Of a stretch of 64,000 bases of DNA, positions 1 to 56,245 are shown one piece after another. The notes under the pieces are model-generated. The model was not told where the DNA came from, did not search any database, and worked only from the letters and a program-made list of their open reading frames with translations. The position numbers and the translations under genes were made by a program. Position 1 is the first letter of the stretch, and the number at the start of each line of letters is the position of its first letter. The stretch comes from an uncultured Bacilli bacterium (GTDB taxonomy: Bacteria > Bacillota_I > Bacilli_A > RF39 > UBA660). The stretch lies in contig CANQDM010000001.1 of assembly GCA_947591505.1 (NCBI GenBank), positions 25,316-89,315 on the forward strand. Reading direction: 5' to 3'.

Positions 1-305
1 AAAAAATTAGTATATTTAAAATATAATAGGCTACTTATAATACCTAGAATGGCAATAATAAAGAAAATTAATTTTATATTTTTTTTATCATTATAATAAT
101 TAATAAATAAACCACAGACATAACTAAACAAAACTGTAAAAAACATTAAAATTATATATTTTGGTTCACCCCAGGCATAAAAAATTAGAGAAAATATTAA
201 AAGTATTATATTTCTAAATTTTATAAATTTTTTGGGTATAATAAAATATATTATTAATAATAATGGTAAAAAAGTAAATAGAAATGTCAAACTACTAAAT
301 AACAT
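1..305 (-). CDS. MBOAT family membrane O-acyltransferase (AlgI/DltB-like), N-terminal 101 codons; gene continues beyond window start
   Basis: Manual minus-strand translation from the ATG at 305-303 is open to position 1: MLFSSLTFLFTFLPLLLIIYFIIPKKFIKFRNIILLIFSLIFYAWGEPKYIILMFFTVLFSYVCGLFINYYNDKKNIKLIFFIIAILGIISSLLYFKYTNF. This matches the typical MBOAT N-terminus (YAWGEP motif). RBS AGGAGGG lies 4 nt upstream. A DHHW gene sits immediately upstream, the usual MBOAT partner. Confidence 0.7.
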   Translation of the reverse strand, partial: MLFSSLTFLFTFLPLLLIIYFIIPKKFIKFRNIILLIFSLIFYAWGEPKYIILMFFTVLFSYVCGLFINYYNDKKNIKLIFFIIAILGIISSLLYFKYTNF

Positions 306-314
306 ATAACCCTC

Positions 315-1451
315 CTATAACATAAAAGCATCTGAAGTAAAATAATCTATATTACCAATAAGTAAAACTTTATCTATATCATTTGCTGTTATAAAATTAT
401 TAAAATCAAATTTATAACCCATTTCTGTTTCAAACTTTCTTAAATCAACATTGTAAGTTTTATTAAAATGAGAACTAATTAAATCATTTATGGCATTATC
501 ATAAGACTCACCAATAATAAGTAAATTCTCTCTTTCTGGGTGATGATAATCAAATTCAATTAAACCGTAATCCATTCCATAAAACTCAGCATAAGTGGTT
601 TTACTAGGATTATTTTTAATTATTTCTTGTTTATTTGTATAACTTTGTTGAAGTTTATCATTAATATATACATCATAATTAAGATTGGCAAAATCATAAT
701 AACAAAGATTTTCTCTAAATATTAAAGAGCCACCAATTAATGTGTTTTTTGAACCACTAACTCTACTATTAAGGCATATTTCTTTTTGATATTTAATTGG
801 CTCTGATAAATTTAATAAATTTACTAAATCTAAATAAGCCTTATAAGATCCTTTATAATTCCAATGATGATCAGTTTTATAAAAATAATCTTGAAATTCC
901 GTAAAATTATTAATTGTAAATTTTTGCGTTTTTATATTAGAATTAATATTATCTTTAATATATTCATAGGCATTTAATTTAGCATTATTAGTAAAATCTA
1001 TATCCGTATCTTTTTCTATATAATATAAATATATATTATTTTTATCTTTTAATATATTGTCATAATTTTCTATTTTAGCATCTAATTTGGCTTTTATATT
1101 ATCAAAAGAATATGTATTATATACTAAATTATTTTTATACAAGTAAATTCCATTATCTAAATAATGATAACCTTGATCTTGAAAACTAAAATAAATATTC
1201 TTTTCTTCTAAAGCAATTGTTTTTTCCACTAACTTCATAATACTTGTAAGTGGTAATTGATCTGCCAATGCTAATTCATAATTATTTTGAAAATCACCAT
1301 TTAAAAAACTTTTAACTGAAAATTGAGGAATTTGATATGCTGTTCTATTCTCCCTATAATTATTTTGATTTTGTGATAGATAAGGCTTAATACCCCCCCC
1401 GAAAATAATTAAGACAAAAATGATTAAAAATAAAATGTTTACTTTTTTCAT
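315..1451 (-). CDS. DHHW family protein (SGNH/AlgX-AlgJ-like O-acyl transfer partner of MBOAT), N-terminal signal anchor
   Basis: 378-aa ORF with N-terminal TM and a DHHW motif (KTDHHWNYKG). Adjacent to an MBOAT gene. Confidence 0.75.
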   Translation of the reverse strand: MKKVNILFLIIFVLIIFGGGIKPYLSQNQNNYRENRTAYQIPQFSVKSFLNGDFQNNYELALADQLPLTSIMKLVEKTIALEEKNIYFSFQDQGYHYLDNGIYLYKNNLVYNTYSFDNIKAKLDAKIENYDNILKDKNNIYLYYIEKDTDIDFTNNAKLNAYEYIKDNINSNIKTQKFTINNFTEFQDYFYKTDHHWNYKGSYKAYLDLVNLLNLSEPIKYQKEICLNSRVSGSKNTLIGGSLIFRENLCYYDFANLNYDVYINDKLQQSYTNKQEIIKNNPSKTTYAEFYGMDYGLIEFDYHHPERENLLIIGESYDNAINDLISSHFNKTYNVDLRKFETEMGYKFDFNNFITANDIDKVLLIGNIDYFTSDAFML

Positions 1452-1475
1452 ATCGATTCTCCTCTATTTTTTGCT

Positions 1476-2585
1476 CTAATTAAAATATTTTATTATGGCA
1501 TCAACTATTCTTTTACTAGCATAACCATCACCATATGGATTAGATGCCTTACTCATTTTTTCATATGCCAATTTATCTTCTAATAATTTTTTGGTTTCTC
1601 TATATATTACTTCTTCATCAGTTCCAACGAGTTTTAATGTTCCTGCTTCAATACCTTCTGGTCTTTCCGTTGTATCTCTTAAAACTAATACTGGTTTACC
1701 TAAAGATGGTGCTTCTTCTTGAATTCCTCCTGAATCACTTAATATTAAATAACTTTTATTTTGAAAATTATGAAAATCAAATACTTCAAGAGGTTCAATT
1801 AAATGTACTCGATTGCAACCTACAAATATTTCATTTGCTACATCTCTAACTTTAGGATTTAAATGAATGGGATAAATAACTTTAACATCAGGAAATTCAT
1901 CTACTACTCTTTTAATTCCTTTAAAAATTCTTCGCATTGGTTCACCTAAGTTTTCTCTTCTGTGAGCAGTTAGTAAAATCATTCTTTCACCATCTTTAAT
2001 CCATTCTAATTCCGGATGAGTATAATTATCAGAAATTGTTGTACTCATCGCATCTATTACCGTATTACCGGTAACATATATTTTATCTTCAAGAATATTT
2101 TCTTTCATTAAATTATCTTTACTCAAATTAGTTGGCGCAAAATACATATCAGTCATGCAATCAACCATTTGCCTGTTCATCTCTTCCGGATAGGGACTAT
2201 ATTTATCATTGGTTCTAAGACCAGCTTCTACATGACCAATAGCAATTTGTTTATAAAATGCTGCAAGTGCTCCTGCAAAAGTTGTTGTTGTATCACCATG
2301 CACTAAAACTATATCTGGCCTACATTCATCAAGCACTTCTTCTAATCCTTTTAATACTTTAGTTGTTATATCACTAAGAGTTTGTCCTTTACTCATAATA
2401 TTTAAATCATAATCGGGTCTTATTTTAAAAGTTTCTAATACTTGATCAAGCATTTCCCGATGTTGAGCGGTAACACAAACAATGCTTTCAATTTCTCGTC
2501 TACTTTCTAACTCTTTTACAAGGGGAGCCATTTTAATAGCCTCAGGTCTTGTTCCAAATATACTCATTACTTTAATTTTTTTCAT
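1476..2585 (-). CDS. wecB: UDP-N-acetylglucosamine 2-epimerase (non-hydrolysing)
   Basis: 369 aa. The N-terminus MKKIKVMSIFGTRPEAIKMAPLV and overall length are typical of WecB/MnaA. Confidence 0.9.
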   Translation of the reverse strand: MKKIKVMSIFGTRPEAIKMAPLVKELESRREIESIVCVTAQHREMLDQVLETFKIRPDYDLNIMSKGQTLSDITTKVLKGLEEVLDECRPDIVLVHGDTTTTFAGALAAFYKQIAIGHVEAGLRTNDKYSPYPEEMNRQMVDCMTDMYFAPTNLSKDNLMKENILEDKIYVTGNTVIDAMSTTISDNYTHPELEWIKDGERMILLTAHRRENLGEPMRRIFKGIKRVVDEFPDVKVIYPIHLNPKVRDVANEIFVGCNRVHLIEPLEVFDFHNFQNKSYLILSDSGGIQEEAPSLGKPVLVLRDTTERPEGIEAGTLKLVGTDEEVIYRETKKLLEDKLAYEKMSKASNPYGDGYASKRIVDAIIKYFN

Positions 2586-2746
2586 AAAAGCCTCTTTTTC
2601 TATTCAAAAAATAAAAATATTTAATATTCTAAAATATGATAAACATCTTTTTATATATGATAACATAAAAATATACAAAAAAATAGTTAAAAAAAGATTG
2701 TCACTAAATTTTAATTTAAGCCACAATCCTTAAAATAATAATTAAT

Positions 2747-4297
2747 TTATGCCTTTTCTTCGTGATATTCTTGTTCCGTATTTACATTCCAAATATTATC
2801 TTTATTCTTTTCTCCATTCAAAATGTTTTTAACTGTTTCAAAAGATGTAACCATTGAATGATCCATATTATTATATCTATGTTGGCCATTTCTACCAACA
2901 CAATAAAGATTATTATAATTATTTAAATAATTAATTAACTTATCAATACTTTGATAGGTATCGAAATATGCTGGATATGCTTTCTTTACTTTTTCGCGGT
3001 GCGCATCTAAAACATCTTTTTCATCAATTATTCCCATTTTTATTAGTTCATTTTTGGCAAATTCAATACATTTTTTATCACTTAAATTCCAAAATTCATC
3101 GCCTTCGTTACAGAAATATTCTAAACCAATCCAGATTGTTTTATCAACATTTTTAACCATATAAGGGCTCCAGTTGTTAAATATTTGAATTCTCCCTAAT
3201 TTAACATCTGGTTCTTGAACATATATCCAACAATCTGGTACTATATTTCCTAATGTTTTAATATCAGTTTCATTTTTTAAATTCAATTTTTTTACTAATA
3301 AACCAACGGTAACAAAATCACGATAAGGAAGGCCAACCGCTATATCATGAATATCTTTTGGCACATCATTCATACCAGCAATTAAATCTTTAAGAGGCAT
3401 ACTAGAAATAAATATATCGCCACTTATTTCTTTTTCTTCATCTCCTACTTTACAAATTACAGATTTAATTCTATTATTCTTTTGCTTAATTTTAATTACT
3501 GAATGATTCTTTAAAAATTCCCCCCCCGATTTTTCAATTTTATCTGCCACAGTTTCCCAAAGCTCTCCTGGGCCATACTTAGGATATTTAAATTCTTCAA
3601 TTAAAGATGTTTCAACATTTTTACTTTTTATGTGAAATACTTTTTTAAACATATCTTTTATTACCGCAGAAATTGATAATCCTTTTACTCTTTGACTACC
3701 CCAATCTGCGGATATTTGCGATGGATGTCGACCCCATAATTTTTCCGTATATTTTTCAAAAAACATACTATATAATTTCTTACCAAAACGATTTATATAA
3801 AAATTTTCTAGAGAATCTTCTTCTTTTTTAATTACTGTACTTTTTAAATAACTACATCCTGCAGTAAAAGTTCTACCTAAGCCCATATTCTTAAAAGTTT
3901 GGAATTTCATACTAATAGGGTAATCAAAGAATTTCTTTAAATAATAAATTCTTGATACCCGATGACGAAGTAACATTACTTGATCTTCTTTTTCGGGATC
4001 TGGTCCACCTTTTACTAAATTCTTCTCTCTTTTTAATTTTTTATCATCATATGATGGCTTACCTTGGGTTGGCATAACTTCTTCCCAAAAATTAATAACA
4101 TCTTGATCTTTAGAAAAGAAACGATGACCACCTATATCCATTCTGTTACCTTTATATCTAACAGTTCGAGAAATACCTCCTACATCTTTAGATTCTTCTA
4201 AAATAACTACTTCATAATCTTTACTTTTTTTAAGTAGTTCATAACCAGCAGTTAAACCTGCTGGACCTGCCCCAATAATTACAACTTTCTTCTTCAT
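2747..4297 (-). CDS. NAD(P)/FAD-dependent oxidoreductase (amine-oxidase/UDP-galactopyranose-mutase-like superfamily)
   Basis: 516 aa. N-terminal Rossmann dinucleotide motif [17 protein letters not shown]...E(x)GG. Embedded in the glycan locus. Confidence 0.6.
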
Positions 4298-4306
4298 AAA
4301 TACCTC

Positions 4307-6280
4307 CTATTTCACCACTTTATAAAGAATTTTTCTTGCGCCAAAATTCCAAATAAATACTAATAATGTCGATATAATCTTACTCAATAAATAATAAATA
4401 CTACATATACTTGTAAATATCCAAATTAGTAAAGTATCAATTCCTAAACCTAACACACCTATTATAGCATAAATAATAAATTCTTTTCTTTTAGTTATAC
4501 TTGTTTTTTCTTGGAAAACAAACTTTTTGCTTAATAGATAATTAACTATTAATCCCAAAGTAAATGCTAAAATATTTGATATTATATAGTGTATCCTAAA
4601 TAAATCAGTAAATACATAAAGCATACCAATATTAACAACTGCAGCTATGCCACCAACAAATATATATCTTATAAATTGAATAAGGGTATTATCTGTTTTA
4701 TCTGTAAAATACTTTTTCATTAATTTTTTCGTTTTTGATTCTTTATTTGATAAATCTTTTGGCATAAAATTAGATAAACTATAAATTAATAATGGTAAAG
4801 CACAAATTGCTTGAGAATATACAAATCTATACTCTTCTCCTGTTATAAGCAACATTATAACTGCCGTATTAGAAAGAACTAAAGCAAAAGGCAATAAATA
4901 TTTAAAATTCAATTTTGCTTTTTTTAATACTAAGGCTAAAGCAAATAAAATTATACATAATCCATCACCAAAGCCATTAAAAATTAATCGCAGAGGACTA
5001 TTAGTAACTAAGTTATTATAATCAATAACATATTGTAAATACTTATTACTTATATCTTCCATAACTCCTTTTTCAGCAATTTCCCCACTATTACTATACA
5101 TTATTAAAGGAAGATTTGGATAACTACGTTCTATTTGCCAAATTGGACTAGTCATATTTAAAAACGATTTTACAAATAATGCCGGTGAATGAATAGATTT
5201 ATTAAACCATATTTTTAAAATATTATTAAAATTTTTTTCAACTGAATGCCGATAATCTTTAGCAGTATATTTTATATTATTAAAATTGCGAGGATTATAT
5301 TCAAGTTTCCAATTTTTTAACGGGGTAATATTATCTAATATTAATAACTCTTTTTCGGAAAAAGATGGTAAATCATTATTGTAATAATATGATATTTGTC
5401 CCATTAAAAGTCCAACCATTTCAGATTTTCCACCCGTTTTATTATCAATGTTAAAATATTTATATACAGGATTAAAAATTATAAAACTACTTATTAATAT
5501 AGCTCCTAAACTTATTAAAGAAAATTTTCTGAATTTCGGATAAAAAATTATAATACCTAAATATAATATAAAGAAAGTTACTATCCCGTTGTGGCGGAAA
5601 AATAATATTGGTAAACTACTAATTATAAACATAATTTTATTTTTATGATTTTTTAACCATTCACCATCACTTATAACAATATTTATCATATATAATGTTG
5701 CTAAAAATATTCCCCAAGAAAAAGTTACATCCTTCCACATATATACACAATATCTTAAAAATAAAGGATTAAGAATTATTAATAATAATATTGCTAAAGT
5801 TTGTCTAAAATTCAAAAAGTTTTTTCTTAAAAAGTGGCAAAAATATAATAATATGCCAAATATGATTAAAGATTGCCAAATAACTGAAGATATTAAACCT
5901 TTATAAAATAATTGGGGCAATTTATACATTACTAAAGTGTGCATTGCGGGATGCCAATTATTATAAGTATTATTCATGGCTTGATTATATTGACCTATTA
6001 CATCAGGAGATATTGCCCCAGGATAATGGGCAATAACTGTAAATGATAATGCTAATAATATTAAACCACCAAAAATAAAATATTCCCGCTTTTTGATTTC
6101 TTTTTTATTGAAATTTATTTTACTGGCAATGCTCCAACCAAAATTAACTAAAATAAAAACAATTATAAAACATATTGCAAAAAGAAAATAATTTATACCA
6201 CTATAACTATTCCAAGTAATAGATAAAGAAAAGAAAAAAGACAATAGTAATTTTAAAAAAAGATCTAATTTATTTTGCAT
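4307..6280 (-). CDS. large polytopic membrane protein (GT-C-like/DUF) fused to a C-terminal GtrA-like domain
   Basis: 657 aa with many predicted TM segments. The last ~120 aa resemble the GtrA family: IRYIFVGGIAAVVNIGMLYVFTD...LSKKFVF. Confidence 0.55.
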   Translation of the reverse strand: MQNKLDLFLKLLLSFFFSLSITWNSYSGINYFLFAICFIIVFILVNFGWSIASKINFNKKEIKKREYFIFGGLILLALSFTVIAHYPGAISPDVIGQYNQAMNNTYNNWHPAMHTLVMYKLPQLFYKGLISSVIWQSLIIFGILLYFCHFLRKNFLNFRQTLAILLLIILNPLFLRYCVYMWKDVTFSWGIFLATLYMINIVISDGEWLKNHKNKIMFIISSLPILFFRHNGIVTFFILYLGIIIFYPKFRKFSLISLGAILISSFIIFNPVYKYFNIDNKTGGKSEMVGLLMGQISYYYNNDLPSFSEKELLILDNITPLKNWKLEYNPRNFNNIKYTAKDYRHSVEKNFNNILKIWFNKSIHSPALFVKSFLNMTSPIWQIERSYPNLPLIMYSNSGEIAEKGVMEDISNKYLQYVIDYNNLVTNSPLRLIFNGFGDGLCIILFALALVLKKAKLNFKYLLPFALVLSNTAVIMLLITGEEYRFVYSQAICALPLLIYSLSNFMPKDLSNKESKTKKLMKKYFTDKTDNTLIQFIRYIFVGGIAAVVNIGMLYVFTDLFRIHYIISNILAFTLGLIVNYLLSKKFVFQEKTSITKRKEFIIYAIIGVLGLGIDTLLIWIFTSICSIYYLLSKIISTLLVFIWNFGARKILYKVVK

Positions 6281-6411
6281 AATTACTCCTTAAAATTATT
6301 ATATAATATAGAATTTTGAAAAGCAATAAATAGCGTAAATAATTTTTTAACATTTAATTCTATATTATTATAAGTTAAATTGCTAAATCTTAAAGTTATA
6401 TTAATTCTAAT

Positions 6412-7404
6412 TTAATTTTTTTTATGATTAAAAGTAAATACTAATTTAGCTATGTATTTATTAAAACTAAGTAAATATATACCCTTTAGACCATTAGAAA
6501 GAAAATATTTATTTTTTCTATAATTAGGAAAATTCTTTTTAACATTATTTATAGCTTCATTAACTGCTTTTATAAAATCTTTTTTTTCTAATAATGCTGC
6601 TTGTTTAATAAAAGTTGCATATAAATACCTTACATAACAATATTCTAATTCTTCAAAATATTCATCATAATAATTATTTTTTTTATAATAATCTATGATT
6701 CCATTCATATTGCTAATATAATCAAATATTTTAACATTTGCTTTTTTAGATATTGTACCTGTTCTTTGCGTATAATTTAAAAAGTAATCTTTTACAACAC
6801 CTAGTTTATTTATTTTAGGTATTAATCTACAAGTAAATTCTACATCTTCAAATAATATGCCTTTTTTAAATCTAAAATTATTAGCAAATATTTCTTTTTT
6901 ATATATTTTATTACAAGCTGAAGGATAGATATTTATTAGTAATTTTTTTATATCTTCTTTATTTTCTATATCTTCTTTAATATTCGAATTAACTAATTCA
7001 ATTTTATTAGTATCTTCATAAATATATTTTAAATTACATACAACAATATCATAATTATTTTCTATTGCTTTGTTATACATTTTAGCAAACATATCTTCAT
7101 CAACATAATCGTCAGAATCAATAAAGGCAATATAATCACCAGTAGCATGTTGAAGGCCATAATTACGAGCATCAGAAAGCCCACCATTTTCTTTAATAAA
7201 CTTTTTTATCTTTTGAGGATATTTTTTAGCGTATTTATCTATAATCTTTTGACTATTATCTGGTGAACCATCATTAACGATTATAATTTCAATTTCTTTT
7301 AAAGTTTGATTTACTAAACTATCTAGGCATATTTCTAAATAATTTTCTACATTATAGACTGGTACTATTATACTAACTTTTTTCTTCATTTTTACAATAT
7401 TCAC
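6412..7404 (-). CDS. family 2 glycosyltransferase
   Basis: VSIIVPVYNVENYLEICLDSLVNQTL...IIIVNDGSPDNS and DSDD motifs. Confidence 0.9.
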   Translation of the reverse strand: MNIVKMKKKVSIIVPVYNVENYLEICLDSLVNQTLKEIEIIIVNDGSPDNSQKIIDKYAKKYPQKIKKFIKENGGLSDARNYGLQHATGDYIAFIDSDDYVDEDMFAKMYNKAIENNYDIVVCNLKYIYEDTNKIELVNSNIKEDIENKEDIKKLLINIYPSACNKIYKKEIFANNFRFKKGILFEDVEFTCRLIPKINKLGVVKDYFLNYTQRTGTISKKANVKIFDYISNMNGIIDYYKKNNYYDEYFEELEYCYVRYLYATFIKQAALLEKKDFIKAVNEAINNVKKNFPNYRKNKYFLSNGLKGIYLLSFNKYIAKLVFTFNHKKN

Positions 7405-10797: not shown

Positions 10798-11838
10798 TTA
10801 ATGGGCATACTTTAAAAATTTAAAATACTTAGTTTTTTCTAATTTTAAAATAATAAAACTAGCAAGTAAACAACACGTTAAAGTTATAATAAAATTAAAT
10901 ATACCTATCACCATAAAATCACTAGTAAAATGTTTTAAAATATATGCTACTACAGGAGCAACTGAAGCATGAAGAGGAAAAGTTATAGTACTTATATTTC
11001 TAAATATTTTGTTGTGTTTTAAATTAATGCTAATATTCAATAATAATTTAAAAATCATTACACAAATGGGTATTAAAAATAAGTAACAATCATTCGTAAA
11101 CATTCCACTTAAATTATAAACATATTTCCATTCCATATATAAAAGTAAGATAAATATTATTAAACTTAAGCAAAATGTTTTTTTATATTTTATTTTATAA
11201 TTTATTTTTTTATCAGCAAACATTTTACCCATAAAAATCCAAAATAAAGCAACTGGAAAACTAAATACTGGGGAAGAGAAAAACATTGTATAAGTTTGTA
11301 CTATATTATTTATAAATTCATTATTAACATAAAATGTACTATAACTGGATATTAAACAACAAATAATATTAATTAAGAAAAAGATAACAAACAAAATTTT
11401 ATTATTAACTTTTTTAGAAGCATTATAAACAATGAGAGTTGCCCAAATAGATGCAACAATAAACCAGGAGGCAATAAATGTACTAGAAAATAAAGTATTA
11501 GAAAAAATATTGGTAATAATATGAAAAATACTATCAACACCAATAACCCAATCTTTTCTAAAATATATAGTTAATGGTAATAAAACTATGAACCAAAACA
11601 AATATAACTTTAATTGTCTTATAAAATAATTTTTTATAACTTGATCTTTTTGATCTATTGATGAGGCATTTACCCTATCAAATAAAAGAAAAGAAGAAAT
11701 CATAAAAAATAATGGTACAGCAATTCTCAACCATGGAAACAAATAAGTTTGAAATAAAGCAGTATGAATTGCCACTATCATTATTGAAAGAATAAATTTA
11801 GCCAAATCTAAAATATCATATCTTTTTAATTTTTCCAT
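10798..11838 (-). CDS. acyltransferase family 3 membrane protein (OatA/O-acetyltransferase-like)
   Basis: 346 aa, polytopic. N-terminus RYDILDLAKFILSIMIVAIHT is typical of Acyl_transf_3. Confidence 0.7.
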   Translation of the reverse strand: MEKLKRYDILDLAKFILSIMIVAIHTALFQTYLFPWLRIAVPLFFMISSFLLFDRVNASSIDQKDQVIKNYFIRQLKLYLFWFIVLLPLTIYFRKDWVIGVDSIFHIITNIFSNTLFSSTFIASWFIVASIWATLIVYNASKKVNNKILFVIFFLINIICCLISSYSTFYVNNEFINNIVQTYTMFFSSPVFSFPVALFWIFMGKMFADKKINYKIKYKKTFCLSLIIFILLLYMEWKYVYNLSGMFTNDCYLFLIPICVMIFKLLLNISINLKHNKIFRNISTITFPLHASVAPVVAYILKHFTSDFMVIGIFNFIITLTCCLLASFIILKLEKTKYFKFLKYAH

Positions 11839-26479: not shown

Positions 26480-26512
26480 TAGATAAAAAAAGAAAGATTT
26501 TTCACTTTCTTT
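26480..26512 (-). terminator. Rho-independent terminator of the cadherin-like protein gene (hairpin AAAGAAAG-loop-CTTTCTTT plus U-tract), overlapping its stop codon
   Basis: Inverted repeat followed by T-run on the minus strand. Confidence 0.5.
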
Positions 26513-27965
26513 TGCGTTTTTTTCTTTTTCTATCCTCTTCTAAAATATTATATTCTTCTTCGTCCTCTTCATCATTAACAACTTCTATTTCGTTAACATC
26601 TTTTTCTTCAACTGCTTCTTCTATTTCTTTCTTTTTATTTTTCTTTTCTTTTGGCTTTTCTTCATCTAATATAGAATCATTTGCCAATTTATTCTTTTTT
26701 CTTTTGTTCATATTTAAAGTAATAATACAAATTAGAGATAAGAATAGACCAACACCAAAGGCAATAATAACATAGAAATATAAATTGTTTTGTTTAAGAA
26801 GAGCATCAGTTAATTCTTGATCATATAATGTAAATGTCTTATTAACTGTATCATAAGTATAAAAATCTTTTTTACCAGTAGCAACATTCATCCCATAAAC
26901 AACATAGAATTTAGAATTATCATTAAGTCTAAATACTTCATAATTTTGACCATCTATTTTAACATTTGCTTTAGTAAGTTTATCTAACTTGCCATCATAA
27001 TTTAAAATGACAATATTTAAACTAGTCCCTACTATTTCTTTATACTTAGTATATTTACCATTATTATAAATAAAGTTTACTATTTTACCTTCGCTATCTT
27101 TTAGTCCTACTAAAGTATAATTTATTTTATCATTATGACATGCGGGAATAGTAAATTCCCCAATTGTAACTTCACTTTCCGCATACAAGGAAGGACAAGT
27201 ATAGTTTTCTCTTAATTTAATTACAGTATAATCTACGCCAGCATCACTTACATTAATGGGATGTTCGTCAATTACATTAACAATTAAATTATAAGTTTTT
27301 TCACTACCATTTTCCGCTCTTACAACAATTTTTATATTATTAGCGCCTTCAACTAATTCAACTTCACCAGCACCACTTACTGATGCTCTGCTATCATTTT
27401 TAGTAGCTTTAATATTTACTGTCTTAGTACCTTCTGGAACCGTTACAGAATAATCTAAAACATCTTTTTTAAACTCTGGTGTTATTTCAAAGCCTTCTAC
27501 TTCTAAACCCTTTAAATTATTATCTTTAGAATAAGATGCTTCTAATTCTTTTTGGGTAATAATTGAAATAGTTTTAGAACCAGGACTTAAAGTTATAGCA
27601 CTTTCATCAGTTGCATATGCTTCATAATTACTTATTTTTAAATTAGTTGAGCCTGATTTTTTTGCTTGAAATGTAAATGTATATTTTTTAGAACTAACTC
27701 CAGTTGCAACTGAATCAACCATTTTATTGCCACCAAATTCAGTTGATGCTGAAGTTAATTGTAAATAATTGCTATCATAATCTAAAGACATTGACCAACT
27801 ACCAATAGATACATCACTAGACAAAGTAACAGTAACTGTTACCTTATTACCAACTACTACTTTATTAGTACTACTAATGGTAACTGATCCTGATGCTGCA
27901 TTTGTTATAAGTGGTAAAGCAAAAGCAGCAATTAATGTCAATAATAATAATCTTATTTTTTTCAT
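26502..27965 (-). CDS. cell-surface protein with cadherin-like beta-sandwich domain(s), C-terminal TM anchor and poly-Lys/Arg tail
   Basis: Signal peptide, Ig-like segments (LKGLEVEGFEITPEFKKDVLDYSVTV...YNLIVNV), C-terminal hydrophobic helix, then a KRKKRKRK tail. Confidence 0.55.
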   Translation of the reverse strand: MKKIRLLLLTLIAAFALPLITNAASGSVTISSTNKVVVGNKVTVTVTLSSDVSIGSWSMSLDYDSNYLQLTSASTEFGGNKMVDSVATGVSSKKYTFTFQAKKSGSTNLKISNYEAYATDESAITLSPGSKTISIITQKELEASYSKDNNLKGLEVEGFEITPEFKKDVLDYSVTVPEGTKTVNIKATKNDSRASVSGAGEVELVEGANNIKIVVRAENGSEKTYNLIVNVIDEHPINVSDAGVDYTVIKLRENYTCPSLYAESEVTIGEFTIPACHNDKINYTLVGLKDSEGKIVNFIYNNGKYTKYKEIVGTSLNIVILNYDGKLDKLTKANVKIDGQNYEVFRLNDNSKFYVVYGMNVATGKKDFYTYDTVNKTFTLYDQELTDALLKQNNLYFYVIIAFGVGLFLSLICIITLNMNKRKKNKLANDSILDEEKPKEKKNKKKEIEEAVEEKDVNEIEVVNDEEDEEEYNILEEDRKRKKRKRK

Positions 27966-27985
27966 AAAATTTCCTTTCTATATTT

Positions 27986-29704
27986 TTATTGATTAATACT
28001 GGAAATACCAGCAATACTTTTTTGAACTTGTAATAAATCTAGGGCATTTATTTTTCCATCTCCTGATGTATCACCAGCTAAAGATTTTGCACCGCTCAAA
28101 GAATAAATGCCAGCAATATTCTTTTGTACTTGTAGTAAATCTAGAGCATTTATTTTTCCATCTCCTGATGTATCACCATGAATTATTACTGTTAAAGTTT
28201 CATTTGTTTCCGCATTTTTTACTGTTATTTTATAACCAGTCCCAATAATACCATCACTAACTGCATTACCATCGACATTTTTTATTGTTACTGAATTTGC
28301 TCCTGCTATACTTTCAATTGTGTTTTTTACATTTTTAATACTCGTATCAGCATTTATGCCAGAAATATATCCACTTGAATATTTATAACCACTACTAACT
28401 ATTATAGTACTTATAGCAAGTTTTGATGGATCAGTACTATCTGGAGTGGAAACAGCGCCACTATTAACTGTATAGTTTGAATTATCCATATTATTATATA
28501 TAGGAATATAGAAAACAAAACTATTAGACAATAATCCAAGTTTACTATATGAATTATAAGTTGATTTAGCTTCACTAGATGGGGCTTGAATATTAGTCAT
28601 ATATTGATGACTATATACATTTCCATTATTTGGAACTACATTATATTTTTGCAAATATCCAGAGTATTGACCAGCTTGAATATATGAAGAATAAATACTA
28701 TCAGCACCGCCTTTTAAAGCATTTTCTAATCCTTTCCAATTATGATTTTTAGCATAAGCTAATCCACATTCCGTTGGACTTTTGCCAGTAGCACATGTAT
28801 CACTAACACCATAATTATAAAAATTATAATAGTCTTCATAACCAGGATATACGCCACTATATAAATTATATTCGCTTGTCTTGGCTCCTAGTTCTTGTAA
28901 TACTCTGCTAGCAATAAAAACAGGGCTTACTTTAGATTTTTTACCAGCATTAACTAAAGCACCACCAAAATCATGATTCAATTCAACATGATATTTATAG
29001 AACGCTGCATGATCTATAACATCTATTGCAGCAGGTTTATAAGCATTTGTCAATTTATCGTTATAACTTAAATGTTCAAATTGAAAAATATATTTTTCAT
29101 TAAGCCAATTACGAGGATCCATATAATAAGCTACTGCAGTTGAAGAGGCTGGATACCAACTTTTAGAATATGGATTTTTACAAGATTTATCAATATTTGA
29201 AGGATCACTATTTTCAATATAACTTGTACCACATTCACTTTCTTTATTAACTGCAGTACTCCAATCAAGGCCAGTTAAAACAGCTTTAAAGTCCCAATTA
29301 GGGTATTTACTTTTAAGTTCACATAATCCTGGCCAATAAGTGGCAGGAAATCCAGCAATTGAAAATTCTTTTTCACAATTAGTAGTTGGATTTACATTAT
29401 ATACCAATTCTTTTTTTTCAACATATTTACTACAAACATAACCTGAAGCACTTGCCTCATAATAAATTTTATACCATCCACCACTGCAACCTTTTTCATC
29501 TTTATATAATTCATCACTAACCATATTATATTCAGCATTTTTTACTAAAGTTTTTACACTACTATAATTAGTTCCGGGACCTTGTCTTAAATAAACCCCT
29601 GAACCAGTTATTTTTGCGCGATAAGACATAGCATAACTAATATTTACATTAATCATAAACAAAATAGCAAATAAACAAATATACTTTAAATACTTCTTTT
29701 GCAT
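27986..29704 (-). CDS. secreted SH3b-domain cell-wall hydrolase-like protein (glucosaminidase-like core) with C-terminal tandem dockerin-type Ca-binding repeats
   Basis: Signal peptide, then an SH3b-like block (YRAKITGSGVYLRQGPGTNYSS...GWYKIYY). Central domain contains ASRVLQELGA. The C-terminus has two copies of GDTSGDGKINALDLLQVQK(N/S)IAGI, matching the dockerin D-x-x-x-D-G-x-I-N-x-x-D loop plus helix. Confidence 0.55.
   Translation of the reverse strand: MQKKYLKYICLFAILFMINVNISYAMSYRAKITGSGVYLRQGPGTNYSSVKTLVKNAEYNMVSDELYKDEKGCSGGWYKIYYEASASGYVCSKYVEKKELVYNVNPTTNCEKEFSIAGFPATYWPGLCELKSKYPNWDFKAVLTGLDWSTAVNKESECGTSYIENSDPSNIDKSCKNPYSKSWYPASSTAVAYYMDPRNWLNEKYIFQFEHLSYNDKLTNAYKPAAIDVIDHAAFYKYHVELNHDFGGALVNAGKKSKVSPVFIASRVLQELGAKTSEYNLYSGVYPGYEDYYNFYNYGVSDTCATGKSPTECGLAYAKNHNWKGLENALKGGADSIYSSYIQAGQYSGYLQKYNVVPNNGNVYSHQYMTNIQAPSSEAKSTYNSYSKLGLLSNSFVFYIPIYNNMDNSNYTVNSGAVSTPDSTDPSKLAISTIIVSSGYKYSSGYISGINADTSIKNVKNTIESIAGANSVTIKNVDGNAVSDGIIGTGYKITVKNAETNETLTVIIHGDTSGDGKINALDLLQVQKNIAGIYSLSGAKSLAGDTSGDGKINALDLLQVQKSIAGISSINQ
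28040..28200. repeat. near-identical tandem DNA duplication (~70-bp unit) encoding the two dockerin segments
   Basis: ...gtaataaatctagggcatttatttttccatctcctgatgtatcacca... recurs as ...gtagtaaatctagagcatttatttttccatctcctgatgtatcacca... Confidence 0.7.
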
Positions 29705-45163: not shown

Positions 45164-46390
45164 CTAAGCAAATATACCTAAATAATATTTCTTTTTACCT
45201 TTTTTTATTAAGTATACTTTATTATCAATAGCTGAATCTTTTGTAACCATATACATATTATCAGTTATTTTTTTATTATTTAAACTAATGGCATTACCAC
45301 TGATGAGTTCTCTTGCTTCTCTTTTAGATGAACAAATACTACTACTAACTAGTAAGTCTTCTAAAGGTAATTCTTCTTTGATAGCAATTTGTTCCATATC
45401 TTTAAAATTATCTAAAATATCACTTGCTGATAACTTAGTTATATCTTCACTAAATAAGGCTTTACTCATCATTTTGGCTTTATTAAATTCTTCTTCGCCA
45501 TGTAAGAAAGTAATTATTTCCCTGGCAAGTGACTCTTGGGCTATTCTTAGTTCTGGCTTTTCTTTATGCTTATGTTCTATTTCTTCAATTTCTTCTTTAG
45601 ATAAGAATGTCAATCTCTTTAAATAGTCAATTACTATTTCATCACTAGTATTAATTAAAAATTGATATAATTCATAACTAGATGTTTTATTTTTATCAAG
45701 CCATAGAGCATTACCTTCGGTTTTACCAAATTTAACGCCACTCGCATCAAGGACTAAAGGCATTGTCATACCATATAATTCTACGTCTTCTTTTTTTCTG
45801 GCTAGTTCTATTCCCGTTGTAATATTTCCCCATTGATCAGAACCTGCGACTTGTAAAGTTACCCCCTTATCTTTATATAAATGAACAAAATCCATTCCTT
45901 GTAAAATTGTATAAGCAAATTCACAGAAAGTTATACCTGAGTCTAATCTTCTATTAATAATATCTTTATCAAGCATATAATTAACATTGATATATTTACC
46001 ATAATCTCTTAAAAAATCGAGAATACTTAAATCTTTAGTCCAGTCATAATTGTTAACTACTTCAAAGCCAAATATTTCTTTAGCTTGTTTAGATAAACAT
46101 GCAACGTTTTCTAATACTTGTTCTTTAGAAATCATTTGTCTTTCATTTGATGGTTTAGGATCGCCAATTAAACCAGTAGCTCCTCCAATAAGAAGGATTG
46201 GCTTATGACCATATTTAGCAAGTCTAGTCGCAATCAAAAATGAGGAAAAGTGGCCAATATGCATTGAATCAGCAGTTGGATCAGTACCAATGTAAAAAGT
46301 TAATTTCTCTTCATTTAATTTTTTTTCTAACTCGGGACTACTAATATCTTTGATAAGTCCTCGCCATTTTAAATCTTCAAAACAATTCAT
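45164..46390 (-). CDS. tyrS: tyrosine--tRNA ligase
   Basis: HIGH motif (ADSMHIGHF), KMSKS-type KFGKT, C-terminal S4-like domain; 408 aa. Confidence 0.95.
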   Translation of the reverse strand: MNCFEDLKWRGLIKDISSPELEKKLNEEKLTFYIGTDPTADSMHIGHFSSFLIATRLAKYGHKPILLIGGATGLIGDPKPSNERQMISKEQVLENVACLSKQAKEIFGFEVVNNYDWTKDLSILDFLRDYGKYINVNYMLDKDIINRRLDSGITFCEFAYTILQGMDFVHLYKDKGVTLQVAGSDQWGNITTGIELARKKEDVELYGMTMPLVLDASGVKFGKTEGNALWLDKNKTSSYELYQFLINTSDEIVIDYLKRLTFLSKEEIEEIEHKHKEKPELRIAQESLAREIITFLHGEEEFNKAKMMSKALFSEDITKLSASDILDNFKDMEQIAIKEELPLEDLLVSSSICSSKREARELISGNAISLNNKKITDNMYMVTKDSAIDNKVYLIKKGKKKYYLGIFA

Positions 46391-46550
46391 AACTCATCTC
46401 TCCTTTAAATAAAAAAATTCAAAAATTAAGATTTAAGGACGAATTATTAATCCGCGGTACCACCTTAATTTATGAATTATCATACACTTTATACTTATAA
46501 CGTAAGTAAACGATTTAGCTCCAGAGTTGTAAATTCCTTCATCACTAACA
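46391..46550 (-). promoter_or_regulatory. T-box leader upstream of tyrS (T-box AAUUAAGGUGGUACCGCGG at 46452-46470; candidate UAC specifier in ...CGUUUACUUACG...)
   Basis: Near-consensus T-box sequence (plus-strand ccgcggtaccacc at 46452-46464), a GA/K-turn-like UGAUGAAGG block, and a UAC-containing loop. A sigma-A-like promoter (-35 TTGCTA, -10 TATAAT) lies at 46556-46584. Confidence 0.75.
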
Positions 46551-46634
46551 ATTCAATTATAAAATAATTTCTTTAATTTAGCAAATTATTTTTAATATTT
46601 AAGGCATTATTGACATATACCTTCTAAATTTTAT

Positions 46635-47114
46635 TCATTTTTTACAAATTAATTCTTGCTTCATTATTTTTTCAATATAATCAATATTAGTAAAAAATAA
46701 ATCGAATCCCTTACTTTTTAATATTAATAATTCTTTTAAATTACTTTTAATTTCTTTTTTGACTGAACTAACAGCTGCTGTTGGTATATTCTTTTGCATA
46801 TGTATATGATCAATATATTTTTCTATAATAGGGAAAGCATTTTGAAGTAATACTGCCTGATATTTGCCACCAATTTTCCTTATCAGTATACTCTTACATT
46901 TACCATATTTTTTTATCTTTTGATTTATGATTTTTTGATATTTACTTATTTTAGAACTTAGAGGTACTAGCCATAGTATTTCATTATTTTTTAATGCTAA
47001 ATACATTGGTCTTGTATTATCAAAATGATTTTTAAGCAATGTATTATCATTTGCAACTATAAAAAAATCTTCTTTAATATGATATAAATAGCCCTCTTTA
47101 ATTATTATTATCAC
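46635..47114 (-). CDS. ToxN/AbiQ-family type III toxin (endoribonuclease)-like protein
   Basis: ~160-167 aa. Blocks NTRPMYLAL, WLVPLSS and NAFPIIEKY resemble ToxN/AbiQ (TRPYVGIL, YLAPLTS/FAPLSS, MIPIIE). The ORF track starts at TTG 47138, which abuts the terminator hairpin. GTG 47114 is the more plausible start. Confidence 0.6.
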   Translation of the reverse strand: MIIIIKEGYLYHIKEDFFIVANDNTLLKNHFDNTRPMYLALKNNEILWLVPLSSKISKYQKIINQKIKKYGKCKSILIRKIGGKYQAVLLQNAFPIIEKYIDHIHMQKNIPTAAVSSVKKEIKSNLKELLILKSKGFDLFFTNIDYIEKIMKQELICKK

Positions 47115-47124
47115 CTCGCTTTCT

Positions 47125-47156
47125 ATTAAAAACAACAAAAAAAGGATATATCCTTA
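47125..47156 (-). terminator. Rho-independent terminator between antitoxin repeats and toxin (perfect palindrome AAGGATA/TATCCTT plus UUUUUUUGUUGUUUUU)
   Basis: 14-nt perfect palindrome at 47141-47154 followed (minus strand) by a U-rich tract. Confidence 0.65.
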
Positions 47157-47162
47157 AAATAT

Positions 47163-47274
47163 ATCCCTTTTACAACCGGATTAATTTATTACTCGCGCCA
47201 TCCGGTAGCGAGAAACATTTGACAATCGGAATAATTTATTACTCGCACCATCCGAGAGCGAGAAACATAAACAC
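47163..47274 (-). ncRNA. candidate type III antitoxin RNA: ~2.2 tandem direct repeats of ~50 nt
   Basis: 47176-47225 ccggattaatttattactcgcgccatccggtagcgagaaacatttgacaa versus 47226-47274 tcggaataatttattactcgcaccatccgagagcgagaaacataaacac (~88% identity), plus a partial copy at 47165-47175. Non-coding, sitting between a promoter and a terminator. Confidence 0.6.
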
Positions 47275-52851: not shown

Positions 52852-55518
52852 TTATTTACTTCTAATGCATCCTTTGGATTGAAATATAAGTTCTCCTTCT
52901 ACTCTTTTATTAACATTATTTATTTGGTCATAATCACGATAATTTCTAAATATTAATGATATATCCCAACGGTGTTCAGACATAGTATTTGTAGATGCAT
53001 CATTAGAAATTGTAACTTCACCAATTTTATAATCTTTTCCTTTAATATTTACTAAATCAATATTATAAGGTTGTAAATTATTCGTATCACTACTACCTTC
53101 TAATCTTAATATAAGTTGTTCATTTAAATCATATAATTTACCATTCTTAGTATATTTATTTGTAAAGGTATTCTTTTGAGTTTTAAAGATAATATCATAG
53201 GTACATGTTGTAATATCCTCATAAGATTTCAAATAAACAGTCGAATATGCTTTATCACTTGAAATTTCTATATAATTAGCCATACTTGCTGAAGGTTTAT
53301 GCATTTGCTCAGCAGTAACAGATAAGTTAATATCTTTAGGCTCCATTATTGTAAATAATGCATTTGGTTCATCATCTTCATCATCACAATATTTATCGCA
53401 TATACCATCACCATTAGTATCACAGTACTTATCACATTTATCGTCATCATTATTATCACAGTTTAAATCGCACTTACCATCTTTATTGGTATCACAGTTT
53501 AAATCACATTTGCCATCTTTATTGGTGTCACAATTTAAATCACATTTGTCATCTTTATTGGTATCACAGTTTAAGTCACATTTTCCATCTTTATCGGTAT
53601 CACAGTTTAAGTCACATTTACCATCTTTGTCATTATCACAATTGTAATCGCATTTGCCATCTTTATTGGTATCGCAATTTAAATCACATTTGCCATCTTT
53701 ATTGGTGTCACAATTTAAATCACATTTGCCATCTTTATCATTATCACAATTATAATCACATACATGGTCTTTATTTATATCACAATTGTAATCACATCGG
53801 CCATCTTTATCATTATCACAGTTGTAATCACATTTATCATCACCATCGGTATCACAATTCCAATCGCATTTACTGTCCTTATCGGTATCACAATTATAAT
53901 CGCATTTTCCATCTTTATTAGAATCACAATTTAAATCGCATTTTCCATCCCTATTGGTATCACAGTTTAAATCGCATTTTCCATCACCATCGGTATCACA
54001 ATTAATTGGACAAGTAAATTCACAATAGGTGTCACATTTTCCATCACCATCATCATCACAGAACAAATCACAAACTTTATCATTATTCGTGTCACAATTT
54101 AAATCACATTTACCATCTTTATCGGTATCACAATTTAAATCACATTTATTATCGCCATTTGTATCAATATTTAAATCAGGATCTTTATCACCATCGACAT
54201 CTATATTAATGTCAGGGTATCCATCTTTATCAATATCACAATTTAAGTCGCATTTTCCATCACCATCGGTATCTTGATTCATTGGATTTCGATCAGGATT
54301 ACCATCCGTTTCAGCCTCTACATCTGGTTTTTTATCACGGTTAGTATCAATTTCAATATTCTCTTCAACATGAGTATCACAATTGACATCACATTTACCA
54401 TCTTTATCAATATCAAGGTTAGTATCTGGTACACCATTACCATCGGTATCAATATTTAAATCAGGTTTCATATTATCATTAGTATCAATATTAACATCTG
54501 GTTTACCATCACCATTAATATCAACATTAACATCTGGATAGCCATCTTTATTAACATCACAGTTTAAATCGCATTTTCCATCGTTATCTAAATCTTGATT
54601 AGTTGAATTTTGATTTGGCTTACCATCAGTTTCAGCTTCAATATCTGGATCTTTATCTCGATCAGTATCAACCCACATATTTTTTTCAACATGAGTATCA
54701 CAATTGATATCGCATTTTCCATCTTTATCAAAATCTATATTAGTATCTGGTACACCATTACCATCAGTATCAATATTTATATCTGGTTTCTTGTTATCGT
54801 TAGTATCAATATTAACATCTGGTTTACCATCACCATCTATATCGATATTATAATCTGGATAATGGTCATCATTAATATCACAGTTTAAATCGCATTTACC
54901 ATCGTTATCTAAATCTTGATTAAGTAAATTTCGATCTGGATGATTATCAGTTTCGGCATCCACATCAGGATCTTTATCGCCATCAGTATCAATTGGTGTT
55001 TTTTTATCAACATCATCATCAATATTTATATCGGGTTCATTATCACCATTTATATCGATATTGACGTCTGGTTTACCATCGCCATCGGTATCAATGTTTA
55101 AATCTGGCATTTCATTATCATTTGCATCAATATTTATATCTGGTTTACCATCACCATCTAAATCAATATTATAATCTGGATGATTATCACCATCAACATC
55201 ACAATTTAAATCACACTTACCATCGCCATCTAAATCTTGATTAATAAAGTTTTTATCTGGTTTACCATCGTTATCTACATCAATATTAAAAAATGCTTTA
55301 TTTTTAATATTACCATAAGTAATATTAATGTCTGGTAAACCATCACCATCGGTATCACGATTTAACAAAACATTACCGCTACCACCAAAATTACTACCGC
55401 CAAAAAATTCAAGAGTAAAAGTAGTAATAATTAAAATCAAACACAAAATCATTATAATCATCATTATAACTAGTGCCATTAATTTTTTCTTCTTTAATTC
55501 ATCATCTTGAACAAACAT
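52852..55518 (-). CDS. 888-aa secreted/anchored Asp-rich calcium-binding repeat protein: thrombospondin type-3-like repeats, then ~25 Cys-containing 12-residue repeats (CDxNCDxxKDGK), then a unique ~200-aa C-terminal domain
   Basis: Start reassigned to the ATG at 55518 (RBS AGGGGG 9 nt upstream). The ORF-track start at 55596 would overlap the upstream gene. N-terminal TM LMALVIMMIIMILCLILIITTF. First half repeats DxDGDGKPDxNID. Second half is near-perfect CDLNCDTNKDGK units. Confidence 0.8.
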   Translation of the reverse strand: MFVQDDELKKKKLMALVIMMIIMILCLILIITTFTLEFFGGSNFGGSGNVLLNRDTDGDGLPDINITYGNIKNKAFFNIDVDNDGKPDKNFINQDLDGDGKCDLNCDVDGDNHPDYNIDLDGDGKPDINIDANDNEMPDLNIDTDGDGKPDVNIDINGDNEPDINIDDDVDKKTPIDTDGDKDPDVDAETDNHPDRNLLNQDLDNDGKCDLNCDINDDHYPDYNIDIDGDGKPDVNIDTNDNKKPDINIDTDGNGVPDTNIDFDKDGKCDINCDTHVEKNMWVDTDRDKDPDIEAETDGKPNQNSTNQDLDNDGKCDLNCDVNKDGYPDVNVDINGDGKPDVNIDTNDNMKPDLNIDTDGNGVPDTNLDIDKDGKCDVNCDTHVEENIEIDTNRDKKPDVEAETDGNPDRNPMNQDTDGDGKCDLNCDIDKDGYPDINIDVDGDKDPDLNIDTNGDNKCDLNCDTDKDGKCDLNCDTNNDKVCDLFCDDDGDGKCDTYCEFTCPINCDTDGDGKCDLNCDTNRDGKCDLNCDSNKDGKCDYNCDTDKDSKCDWNCDTDGDDKCDYNCDNDKDGRCDYNCDINKDHVCDYNCDNDKDGKCDLNCDTNKDGKCDLNCDTNKDGKCDYNCDNDKDGKCDLNCDTDKDGKCDLNCDTNKDDKCDLNCDTNKDGKCDLNCDTNKDGKCDLNCDNNDDDKCDKYCDTNGDGICDKYCDDEDDEPNALFTIMEPKDINLSVTAEQMHKPSASMANYIEISSDKAYSTVYLKSYEDITTCTYDIIFKTQKNTFTNKYTKNGKLYDLNEQLILRLEGSSDTNNLQPYNIDLVNIKGKDYKIGEVTISNDASTNTMSEHRWDISLIFRNYRDYDQINNVNKRVEGELIFQSKGCIRSK
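53390..54100. repeat. tandem 36-bp coding repeat array (near-identical units, e.g. gtcacaatttaaatcacatttgccatctttattggt), part of a larger degenerate repeat region extending to ~55300
   Basis: Many consecutive 36-bp units with 0-4 mismatches are visible directly in the sequence between ~53440 and ~53800. Confidence 0.8.
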
Positions 55519-55531
55519 AAAACACTGCCCC

Positions 55532-56245
55532 CTAACCTTCATTATTAATTTGAATTTGTTGCTCATTTTGACCTTCAACAGGCATACTTTGAACATTCAA
55601 TTTCAAATACATTAACTTTCCTATTTCCGTTGCTGGTGTGGTATCAGCTAACCAAACATAAACTTTTAAGACTCTTGTTGTAGGCTCAGTTCCTGATTCA
55701 TTTATTGTTGCTTTATTTATTCGACTTTTTAAAATAGGATAAACATCTTGCCCACTAGAAACAAATTGCGTAATTTTCATATTATATGCTGGCTCTCCTG
55801 TTTCATCAGGATTTAAATTTAACCATCCTGAATTATCTAGGCTTTCTTCATAAATGCCAATGATTAAATTATCAAAAGAAACTAATCCTACATCTTTACT
55901 TTCGGGAGGAATATTATCTTCATCATAACTTATTGAAACAATAAAATTAGCATCTATATTGCCATTATTGGAAATAGTTAACGTAGCACAATCTTTTTCC
56001 TCATTATTTAAAATAGATTCAGGGGATGTTGGTAATGTTTCTTCTGTAGGGAAAACTTCAGTCTTGGCCATTGATGTAGCAGATGCTGAAACATTTAAAG
56101 TTCCTGTTGATATTGCTTGAACTGTTGACTTTGATTCAATCGAAAAAAATGCTGAATATGAGTAACTCAACGAAATAATTGTAAGTACGAGAACAGATAA
56201 TATAATAAATTTTGTATTACGTTTTACCTTTTTATCCGACTTCAC
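55532..56245 (-). CDS. TasA/CalY/camelysin-family protein (peptidase M73-like) with SipW-cognate-type signal peptide
   Basis: GTG start with RBS AAGGTGA. The N-terminus KFIILSVLVLTIISLSYSYSAFFSIESKSTVQAISTGTLNV matches the TasA-type pattern (h-region, AFF(S/N)D, xSGTLxL). 237 aa. Confidence 0.65.
   Translation of the reverse strand: MKSDKKVKRNTKFIILSVLVLTIISLSYSYSAFFSIESKSTVQAISTGTLNVSASATSMAKTEVFPTEETLPTSPESILNNEEKDCATLTISNNGNIDANFIVSISYDEDNIPPESKDVGLVSFDNLIIGIYEESLDNSGWLNLNPDETGEPAYNMKITQFVSSGQDVYPILKSRINKATINESGTEPTTRVLKVYVWLADTTPATEIGKLMYLKLNVQSMPVEGQNEQQIQINNEG

Follow-up and report, generated by a model that had tools for sequence, protein, structure and literature searches.

The first ~22 kb of the window, as we refer to the whole 64-kb stretch of DNA from an uncultured Bacilli-class gut bacterium that was analysed here, form a cell-wall glycopolymer (surface polysaccharide) locus, in which two G8 homopolymer tracts lie 2.1 kb apart on the coding strand. 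Tract 1 is located in the gene of a putative extracytoplasmic polysaccharide O-acetyltransferase of the DHHW family, and tract 2 in the gene of a putative flavoenzyme that resembles UDP-galactopyranose mutases (UGMs). The two tracts are good candidates for contingency loci, i.e., sites at which phase variation through slipped-strand mispairing may be inferred. A sequence-only reading of this DNA had placed a C8 run of the plus strand, equivalent to G8 in the minus-strand coding sense, at 1393-1400, inside an O-acylation gene with an MBOAT partner in a surface-polysaccharide locus; had described a run of this length as unexpected at ~25% GC and as one of only two in the window, both in the same locus; and had proposed that it acts as a switch. 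The description of tract, gene, partner and locus is borne out by the analyses below, and the proposal of a switch holds in part. The features discussed are as follows.

1..305, minus strand: first 101 codons of the partner gene, which encodes an MBOAT (PatA1-like) protein and runs off the window
315..1451, minus strand: gene of a PatB1-like, putative DHHW-family (SGNH-like) extracytoplasmic polysaccharide O-acetyltransferase of 378 amino acids with an N-terminal signal anchor
1393..1400, minus strand: tract 1, a G8 homopolymer (C8 on the plus strand) in codons 18-20 of the DHHW gene (GGG GGG GGt)
1452..1475, minus strand: spacer with the ribosome-binding site of the DHHW gene (AGAGGAGAA) and a strain-variable junction
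1476..2585, minus strand: UDP-GlcNAc 2-epimerase (WecB-like) gene (PF02350, E=8e-125), which ends 24 nt upstream of the DHHW ATG
2747..4297, minus strand: gene of a PRK07208-family, FAD/NAD(P)-binding oxidoreductase with 516 amino acids (Pfam Amino_oxidase and NAD_binding_8; NF005549 at 805 bits, cutoff 587)
3520..3527, minus strand: tract 2, the second G8 homopolymer, in codons 257-260 of the flavoenzyme gene (tcG GGG GGG Gaa, S-G-G-E), about mid-gene
4307..6280, minus strand: gene of a membrane protein with an N-terminal DUF6020 part (polytopic, glycosyltransferase-like) and a C-terminal GtrA domain, directly upstream of the flavoenzyme gene

The C8 run occupies exactly positions 1393-1400 of the plus strand (1391-1400 read tacccccccc) and falls inside the open reading frame (ORF) 315..1451 of the minus strand, where it yields the codons TTC GGG GGG GGT, i.e., F17-G18-G19-G20 of the DHHW protein, 51-58 nt past the ATG. 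It is thus placed where the N-terminal membrane anchor of the protein, whose N-terminus is MKKVNILFLIIFVLIIFGGGIKPYL, comes to an end. Tract 2 is contained in the minus-strand ORF 2747..4297. The GC content of the window is 24.8%. On its plus strand, C runs number 13 at length 5 and two at length 8, with nothing at 6 or 7, and no G run is longer than 5; when G and C are taken together, there are 14 runs of 5. One mark of phase-variable genes is a homopolymer or short repeat of a length known to slip, for G/C runs about 7-8 nt or more, within an ORF or promoter, and both G8 tracts are such runs inside ORFs.

Runs of this length are not expected from the composition or codon usage of the window. 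When the synonymous codons of 50 window ORFs were resampled 1000 times using the window's own codon usage, the resampled windows contained a mean of 0.02 G/C runs of at least 8 nt and none of the 1000 had two or more. In the same ORFs, GGG constitutes 6.8% of the Gly codons and TCG 2.6% of the Ser codons, and among the 51 Gly-Gly dipeptides of the window GGG-GGG pairs are found only at the two tract sites; the probability of the codon set that encodes S-G-G-E at tract 2 is ~1e-4. The low-GC background, consisting of 39 related loci with a GC content <30% (632 kb in all), contains 101 runs of length 5, 10 of length 6, one of length 7 and one of length 9, the last being its single run of at least 8 nt, and no run of at least 8 nt was found in 80 further metagenome loci around flavoenzyme homologs. 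Chance does not account for the two G8 tracts, which are over-represented with respect to base composition, codon usage and orthologs alike.

In silico, a change of a single nucleotide in either tract abolishes the full-length product. The DHHW gene encodes 49 amino acids with a G7 and 21 amino acids with a G9, and the flavoenzyme gene 261 and 268 amino acids, respectively; the shifted frames reach a stop within 1-29 codons and encode nothing conserved. The OFF state of the DHHW gene is predicted to be a clean null because tract 1 lies at the 5' end of the gene and the next in-frame starts, L62 and M72, would give rise to proteins devoid of the N-terminal membrane anchor. By the same modeling, either ±1 change would be a clean null in both genes and would be undone by a further ±1 change, so that truncation and its reversal are obtained in silico for both. 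This part of the proposed switch stands, whereas the length heterogeneity that a switch would produce was not seen.

The genes that carry the tracts and their locus

The DHHW protein has 653 homologs, many of which are annotated with PF14286 (DHHW), and homologs that are 42-50% identical to it carry PF14286. A direct Pfam scan of the protein itself finds no match to PF14286 and only ALGX with E=0.0034, which is under its cutoff, and an NCBIfam scan finds no match. However, a profile of the family searched against the PDB matches PatB1 from B. cereus (PDB identifier 5V8D) along almost its entire length, with E=4.3e-22. Membership of the DHHW family is accordingly assigned to the window protein on transitive evidence, namely its PF14286-bearing homologs and the PatB1 profile match. 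In an alignment of 34 homologs, the blocks TDHHWN, GESYDNA (G-E-S-Y-D-N) and DLR are invariant. Block V of the window protein reads KTDHHWNYKG, in which D194, H195, H196 and W197 are invariant in the 34 homologs and are aligned with the DHHW motif of PatB1, and the likewise invariant G314-E-S316-Y-D-N, as the block of the nucleophilic Ser, and D336-L-R338, as the DxR(Y) oxyanion motif of Block II, are aligned with the PatB1 stretches VLKDSFANAI and LDLRHY. At position 340, the window protein has Phe, as opposed to the Tyr present in at least 90% of the homologs.

PatB1, the founding enzyme of the DHHW family, is SGNH-like and O-acetylates secondary cell-wall polysaccharide outside the cytoplasm, together with the MBOAT protein PatA1 (PMC9487903; also PMC7710045). 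Catalytic roles have been assigned to Ser337, Asp357 and Arg359 of PatB1 (PMC9487903). Going by the alignment, these residues would correspond to the Ser and the DxR of the conserved blocks of the window protein. The adjacent MBOAT partner that accompanies DHHW-family genes is also found. The gene next downstream has its ATG ~10 nt past the stop of the DHHW gene, whose 3' end contains a GGAGGG ribosome-binding site, and the full downstream gene, available on contig L001 (1172-2590), which is 100% identical to the window over the overlap, encodes an MBOAT protein of 472 amino acids (PF03062).

The flavoenzyme is distantly related to eukaryotic-type UGMs, UGM chains in the PDB being matched with E ~5e-14 over residues 154-386 only. 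Its score against the UGM equivalog TIGR00031, 33.7 bits, is below the cutoff of 303.75, and the tract 2 gene is best described as encoding a PRK07208-family, UGM-like flavoenzyme of putative function, with a possible role in the synthesis or attachment of a side chain of the furanose type. Its pairing with the upstream DUF6020-GtrA gene is kept in relatives (loci L086 and L088).

The polysaccharide genes of the ~22-kb locus around tract 1 encode two Wzx-type flippases and two O-antigen-ligase-like proteins; WecG/TagA, GT2 and GT4 transferases, and LicD; and a sulfatase-family (alkaline-phosphatase-like) enzyme, an Acyl_transf_3 protein and a polysaccharide deacetylase. The Acyl_transf_3 protein is an O-acyltransferase of 346 amino acids (10798-11838, minus strand), which is unrelated to the DHHW protein and whose gene has no homopolymer tract. 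At least two routes of acylation are thus encoded in the locus, just one of them with a tract. A scan of 1-7000 for promoters and terminators was uninformative in this AT-rich DNA, with 59 promoter-like sites as compared to 60.6 in shuffled sequence and four weak terminator-like sites as compared to 1.2 expected.

Parts of this region in the same species are covered by five ENA contigs (L001-L004 and L085), which were assembled separately and stem from four samples. One of these, L085 (ERZ27249370), departs from the window at the junction 1475/1476 (L085 3334-3366), where the sequence past the wecB stop (TTTGTACATATACTTTTTTAGGTGAAAATATGA) is wholly unlike the leader of the DHHW gene in the window. 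This junction is also the exact starting point of contig L001, which comes from another sample. These observations suggest that the DHHW-MBOAT module is present in some strains and absent from others, or that some have another gene downstream, the basis being 33 nt at 1.8x coverage. In L085, at the same coverage, wecB lacks 21 nt (7 codons, in frame) relative to window positions 2041-2061, and three substitutions at the 3' end of the flavoenzyme gene (window positions 2748, 2757 and 2769) abolish the stop and give rise to a product of 528 amino acids. These differences in wecB and the flavoenzyme gene could be real strain variation or error.

The equivalent Gly-Gly sites in related loci

Both tracts coincide with Gly-Gly sites that relatives encode with other codons. 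In the DHHW family, G19 is present in at least 90% of the homologs, within a consensus of G-G-F, and the position equivalent to residue 20 is Phe in the consensus as opposed to Gly (GGT) in the window, a difference that lengthens a G6 to the G8 of tract 1. Low-GC relatives encode this Gly-Gly site as GGA GGT, GGT GGA, GGT GGC and similar combinations of GGA, GGT and GGC. Likewise, at the Gly-Gly site of tract 2, relatives whose flavoenzyme is 84-85% identical to that of the window have GGA GGT or GGT GGA, with ATG or TTA as the preceding codon. Among 80 GTDB loci with DHHW homologs that were scanned, the window genome not being one of them, the low-GC relatives have no run of at least 7 nt with the exception of one G7 in L035. 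The comparison of orthologous loci that the sequence-only reading had called for thus reveals that the tracts are absent at the equivalent Gly-Gly sites of relatives, but it yields no length variants of the tracts themselves.

The single run of at least 8 nt in the 632 kb of low-GC related loci was found in L088, a locus from a rabbit-gut metagenome-assembled genome (GCA_947626215.1, contig CANQRJ010000011.1), whose flavoenzyme is 84% identical to that of the window. In L088, a membrane-protein gene of ~500 codons in the polysaccharide locus is broken into overlapping ORFs of 317 and 188 amino acids by a G9 at 5254-5262, at a distance of 2 kb from the homolog of the flavoenzyme gene. Addition of one G to the run restores a protein of 501 amino acids, which aligns end to end with intact homologs of 492 and 500 amino acids at 57-58% identity, and a Pfam scan assigns no family to this repaired protein. 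At the position of the junction, the intact homologs have W-G-G or W-G-N, encoded as TGG GGA GGA or TGG GGT AAT. Thus, a relative of the window organism carries a similarly built poly-G run at a Gly-Gly site of a polysaccharide-locus gene, and this gene, intact in its homologs, is frameshifted there. Judging from its sequence, the L088 gene would seem to be either phase-OFF or a pseudogene.

Slipped-strand phase variation and its alternatives

Based on the evidence presented above, we lean modestly towards the hypothesis that both tracts are simple-sequence contingency loci, i.e., slipped-strand phase-variation switches, both of which are currently ON. The rare codons found in the window at sites where relatives have GGA or GGT and the frameshifting G9 in the related metagenome-assembled genome lend the switch indirect support. 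Furthermore, the occurrence of both tracts within 2.1 kb, in genes predicted to modify a surface polysaccharide, fits the classical location of such loci. Mechanistically, the nascent or template strand would misalign in the G run during replication, giving rise to G7 or G9 far more often than bases are substituted. Slippage in tract 1 would turn extracytoplasmic acetyl transfer OFF, upon which the polymer would lose its O-acetyl groups, and might also lower the expression of the MBOAT gene via lost translational coupling. Independently of this, slippage in tract 2 would turn OFF the furanose-type or similar side-chain function, and in either gene a second slip would restore the G8. A clonal population would in this way hold up to four surface states, which may be useful against phages, antibodies or lectins that recognize the polymer.

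Several observations weigh against this hypothesis. G8 is at the short end of the tracts known to phase-vary. Tract 1 is G8 in all four same-species assemblies that cover it (the window, L001, L002 and L003), as is tract 2 in all three (the window, L004 and L085). The ENA contigs, which are 99.3-100% identical to the window at 1.8-7x coverage and are probably from one study judging by their consecutive ERZ accessions, make up a small and non-independent sample. Exact look-ups of the ORFs that OFF alleles would leave behind (the 307- and 317-residue C-terminal ORFs of the DHHW gene and the 217-residue ORF of the flavoenzyme gene) found none in a collection of 5.8 billion proteins. Since a tract of such length is present in only 2 of ~40 related low-GC loci, these tracts are not a general property of the lineage, and the G9 of L088 could also represent a pseudogene that has become fixed, or an error of the consensus, and not an OFF state that can be reversed.

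Other routes to alleles of different tract length were equally unproductive. The list of DHHW homologs contains nothing between 100% and 57% identity, a scan of JGI metagenome contigs for the flanks of tract 1 with a variable gap of 5-12 nt gave 0 matches, and an exact look-up of the WecB protein, which was meant to reach contigs of any tract state, had nothing on record. All assemblies examined are in the ON/ON state. As consensus assemblies hide minority alleles, and as these are of low coverage and of an essentially identical strain, the sample neither confirms nor refutes hypermutability.

The main alternative, which we regard as a serious though less probable explanation, is that the tracts are real but incidental, having arisen through neutral or mutation-driven codon changes at conserved Gly-Gly sites in genes that are in effect constitutively expressed, and represent fragile sites and not switches. 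Any frameshift would then be no more than a deleterious mutation that selection removes. The invariance of G8 in every same-species assembly, the lack of OFF fragments on record, the shortness of the tracts, their absence from most related loci and the equal possibility that the L088 gene is simply dead are all in agreement with such an explanation. However, two runs of rare codons 2.1 kb apart are very unlikely to have come about by chance, given that none of the 1000 resamplings produced them and given the ~1e-4 probability of the S-G-G-E codon set, and the distribution of run lengths is bimodal, with nothing at 6 or 7. Incidental origin would also have to contend with purifying selection, which normally keeps essential coding sequence free of long G runs, as is seen in the 632-kb background, and with the presence of both tracts in exactly the class of genes that carry contingency tracts elsewhere.

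It is quite improbable that the tracts act at the level of RNA or translation, either by slowing the ribosome at rare GGG codons during insertion of the anchor or through transcriptional or ribosomal slippage. While GGG is rare and tract 1 lies at the end of an N-terminal hydrophobic anchor, where pausing has sometimes been proposed, no comparable rationale exists for tract 2 in the middle of a soluble flavoenzyme, relatives use the common GGA and GGT codons at both sites, and the shifted frames terminate before anything conserved is encoded. Programmed slippage is typically tied to A/T runs or heptanucleotide slippery sites, not to G8. Although poly-G is a known artefact class of two-colour Illumina instruments and the ENA contigs are of low coverage, a sequencing or assembly artefact through two-colour poly-G or homopolymer miscalls, named in the sequence-only reading as an outcome that would refute the switch, is hardly credible, given that artefactual poly-G sits at the ends of reads or contigs and would not keep two reading frames, whereas these tracts are internal, in frame and identical, with perfect flanks, in the window and the five independently assembled contigs. 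Horizontal transfer from a GC-richer donor was also considered and rejected, based on the 84-85% identity of the flavoenzyme to those of low-GC relatives and on the local GC content of 23-28%.

The proposed switches resemble known systems to different extents. C. jejuni NCTC11168 has 29 polyG/C tracts of at least 7 nt, most of which are located in genes for lipooligosaccharide, flagella or capsule modification, and mutation rates of G8 tracts have been measured in this species (PMC4965091). The window shares with it an AT-rich genome in which standout G/C runs are found in the ORFs of surface-glycan modifying enzymes and are clustered in a polysaccharide locus, and ±1 slippage leads to ON and OFF states in both, as shown experimentally there and in silico here. 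Whereas C. jejuni belongs to the Gram-negative epsilonproteobacteria, has dozens of tracts in each genome and has been shown experimentally to switch, the organism studied here is an uncultured member of the Bacilli class with two tracts in 64 kb, both at the minimum length and with no length variation observed. In N. meningitidis, two homopolymeric tracts in oatC, the capsule O-acetyltransferase gene of serogroup C, switch the O-acetylation of the capsule (PMC2413038), and pglI, which encodes a glycan O-acetyltransferase, was phase-varied in 41% of paired carriage isolates (PMC5445459). Tract 1 is similar in being a homopolymeric tract within the ORF of a surface-glycan O-acetyltransferase, but it is found in the extracytoplasmic transferase partner, whereas OatC and PglI are single-protein acetyltransferases. 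The enzyme families of the latter two are regarded as unrelated to the two-component MBOAT and DHHW system.

The PatA1-PatB1 pair of B. cereus and B. anthracis is alike in having an MBOAT protein beside a DHHW-family SGNH-like transferase with conserved DHHW, Ser and DxR blocks. It differs in gene order, the order in the window being DHHW followed by MBOAT, and the window protein is too divergent for a direct match to PF14286. A review of PatB1 mentions no phase variation for this enzyme (PMC9487903). A precedent among Firmicutes is that of icaC from S. aureus, in which slipped-strand mispairing within an ORF of the ica operon reversibly controls the exopolysaccharide phenotype (PMC7911514). 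Unlike the two genes of the window, icaC has a tetranucleotide repeat, belongs to another protein family and controls the production of poly-N-acetylglucosamine/polysaccharide intercellular adhesin rather than only its decoration. For uncultured gut Bacilli of low GC content, a non-exhaustive literature search found no report of poly-G contingency loci.

It is possible, and we suggest it more tentatively than the presence of switches as such, that poly-G contingency loci in the style of Campylobacter evolved independently in an uncultured lineage of gut Bacilli with very low GC content, through the recoding of conserved Gly-Gly sites into runs of G8-G9. Single clones could then stochastically vary how their cell-wall glycopolymer is decorated, both in its O-acetylation by the MBOAT/PatB1 pair and in a furanose-type side chain. 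If true, this would be the first phase-variable PatB1/DHHW system known to us, and phase variation at simple sequence repeats would serve Gram-positive commensals of the gut as a means of diversifying their surface, next to the invertible promoters that other gut commensals are known to have. Should the tracts indeed slip, O-acetylation of wall polysaccharide by MBOAT/DHHW systems of the PatA1/PatB1 type can be a stochastic ON/OFF trait, with a bearing on phage receptor recognition and on the binding of host antibodies and lectins. In that case, they would also provide a marker of surface phase variation that can be read from sequence in little-known uncultured gut Firmicutes, and frameshifted 'pseudogenes' at G runs in metagenome-assembled genomes may represent genes in the OFF state. 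As slippage is a textbook mechanism, the value of these findings would lie in its wider range and not in new biology.

Other features of the window

Outside the polysaccharide locus, an ORF of 914 amino acids (52852-55596, minus strand) has no Pfam match and consists mostly of 12-residue Asp-rich repeats (DTDGDGKPDINI, NCDTNKDGKCDL), present in dozens of copies with a 36-nt period. These resemble calcium-binding thrombospondin-type-3-like repeats, and the protein is probably secreted or located at the surface. Two adjoining genes at 26502-29704 (minus strand), one for a protein with a cadherin-like domain and the other for a protein with SH3_3 and a type I dockerin, hint at surface assemblies of the cohesin-dockerin type in a small low-GC gut bacterium.

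A T-box leader is found at 46432-46551 (minus strand), upstream of the tyrosyl-tRNA synthetase gene (45164..46390), with a score of 65 bits and E=1e-13; a default Rfam scan missed it because the score is below the Rfam gathering score of 93. Further upstream of the T-box lie a 167-residue 'ORF' (46635..47138) and a 50-nt direct repeat in two copies (47168-47268). The window as a whole (1-64000) contains 52 ORFs of at least 120 amino acids, of which 46 are on the minus strand, and the GC skew is negative almost throughout (cumulative -5.9), which is consistent with the whole window being on one replichore with its genes co-oriented with replication.

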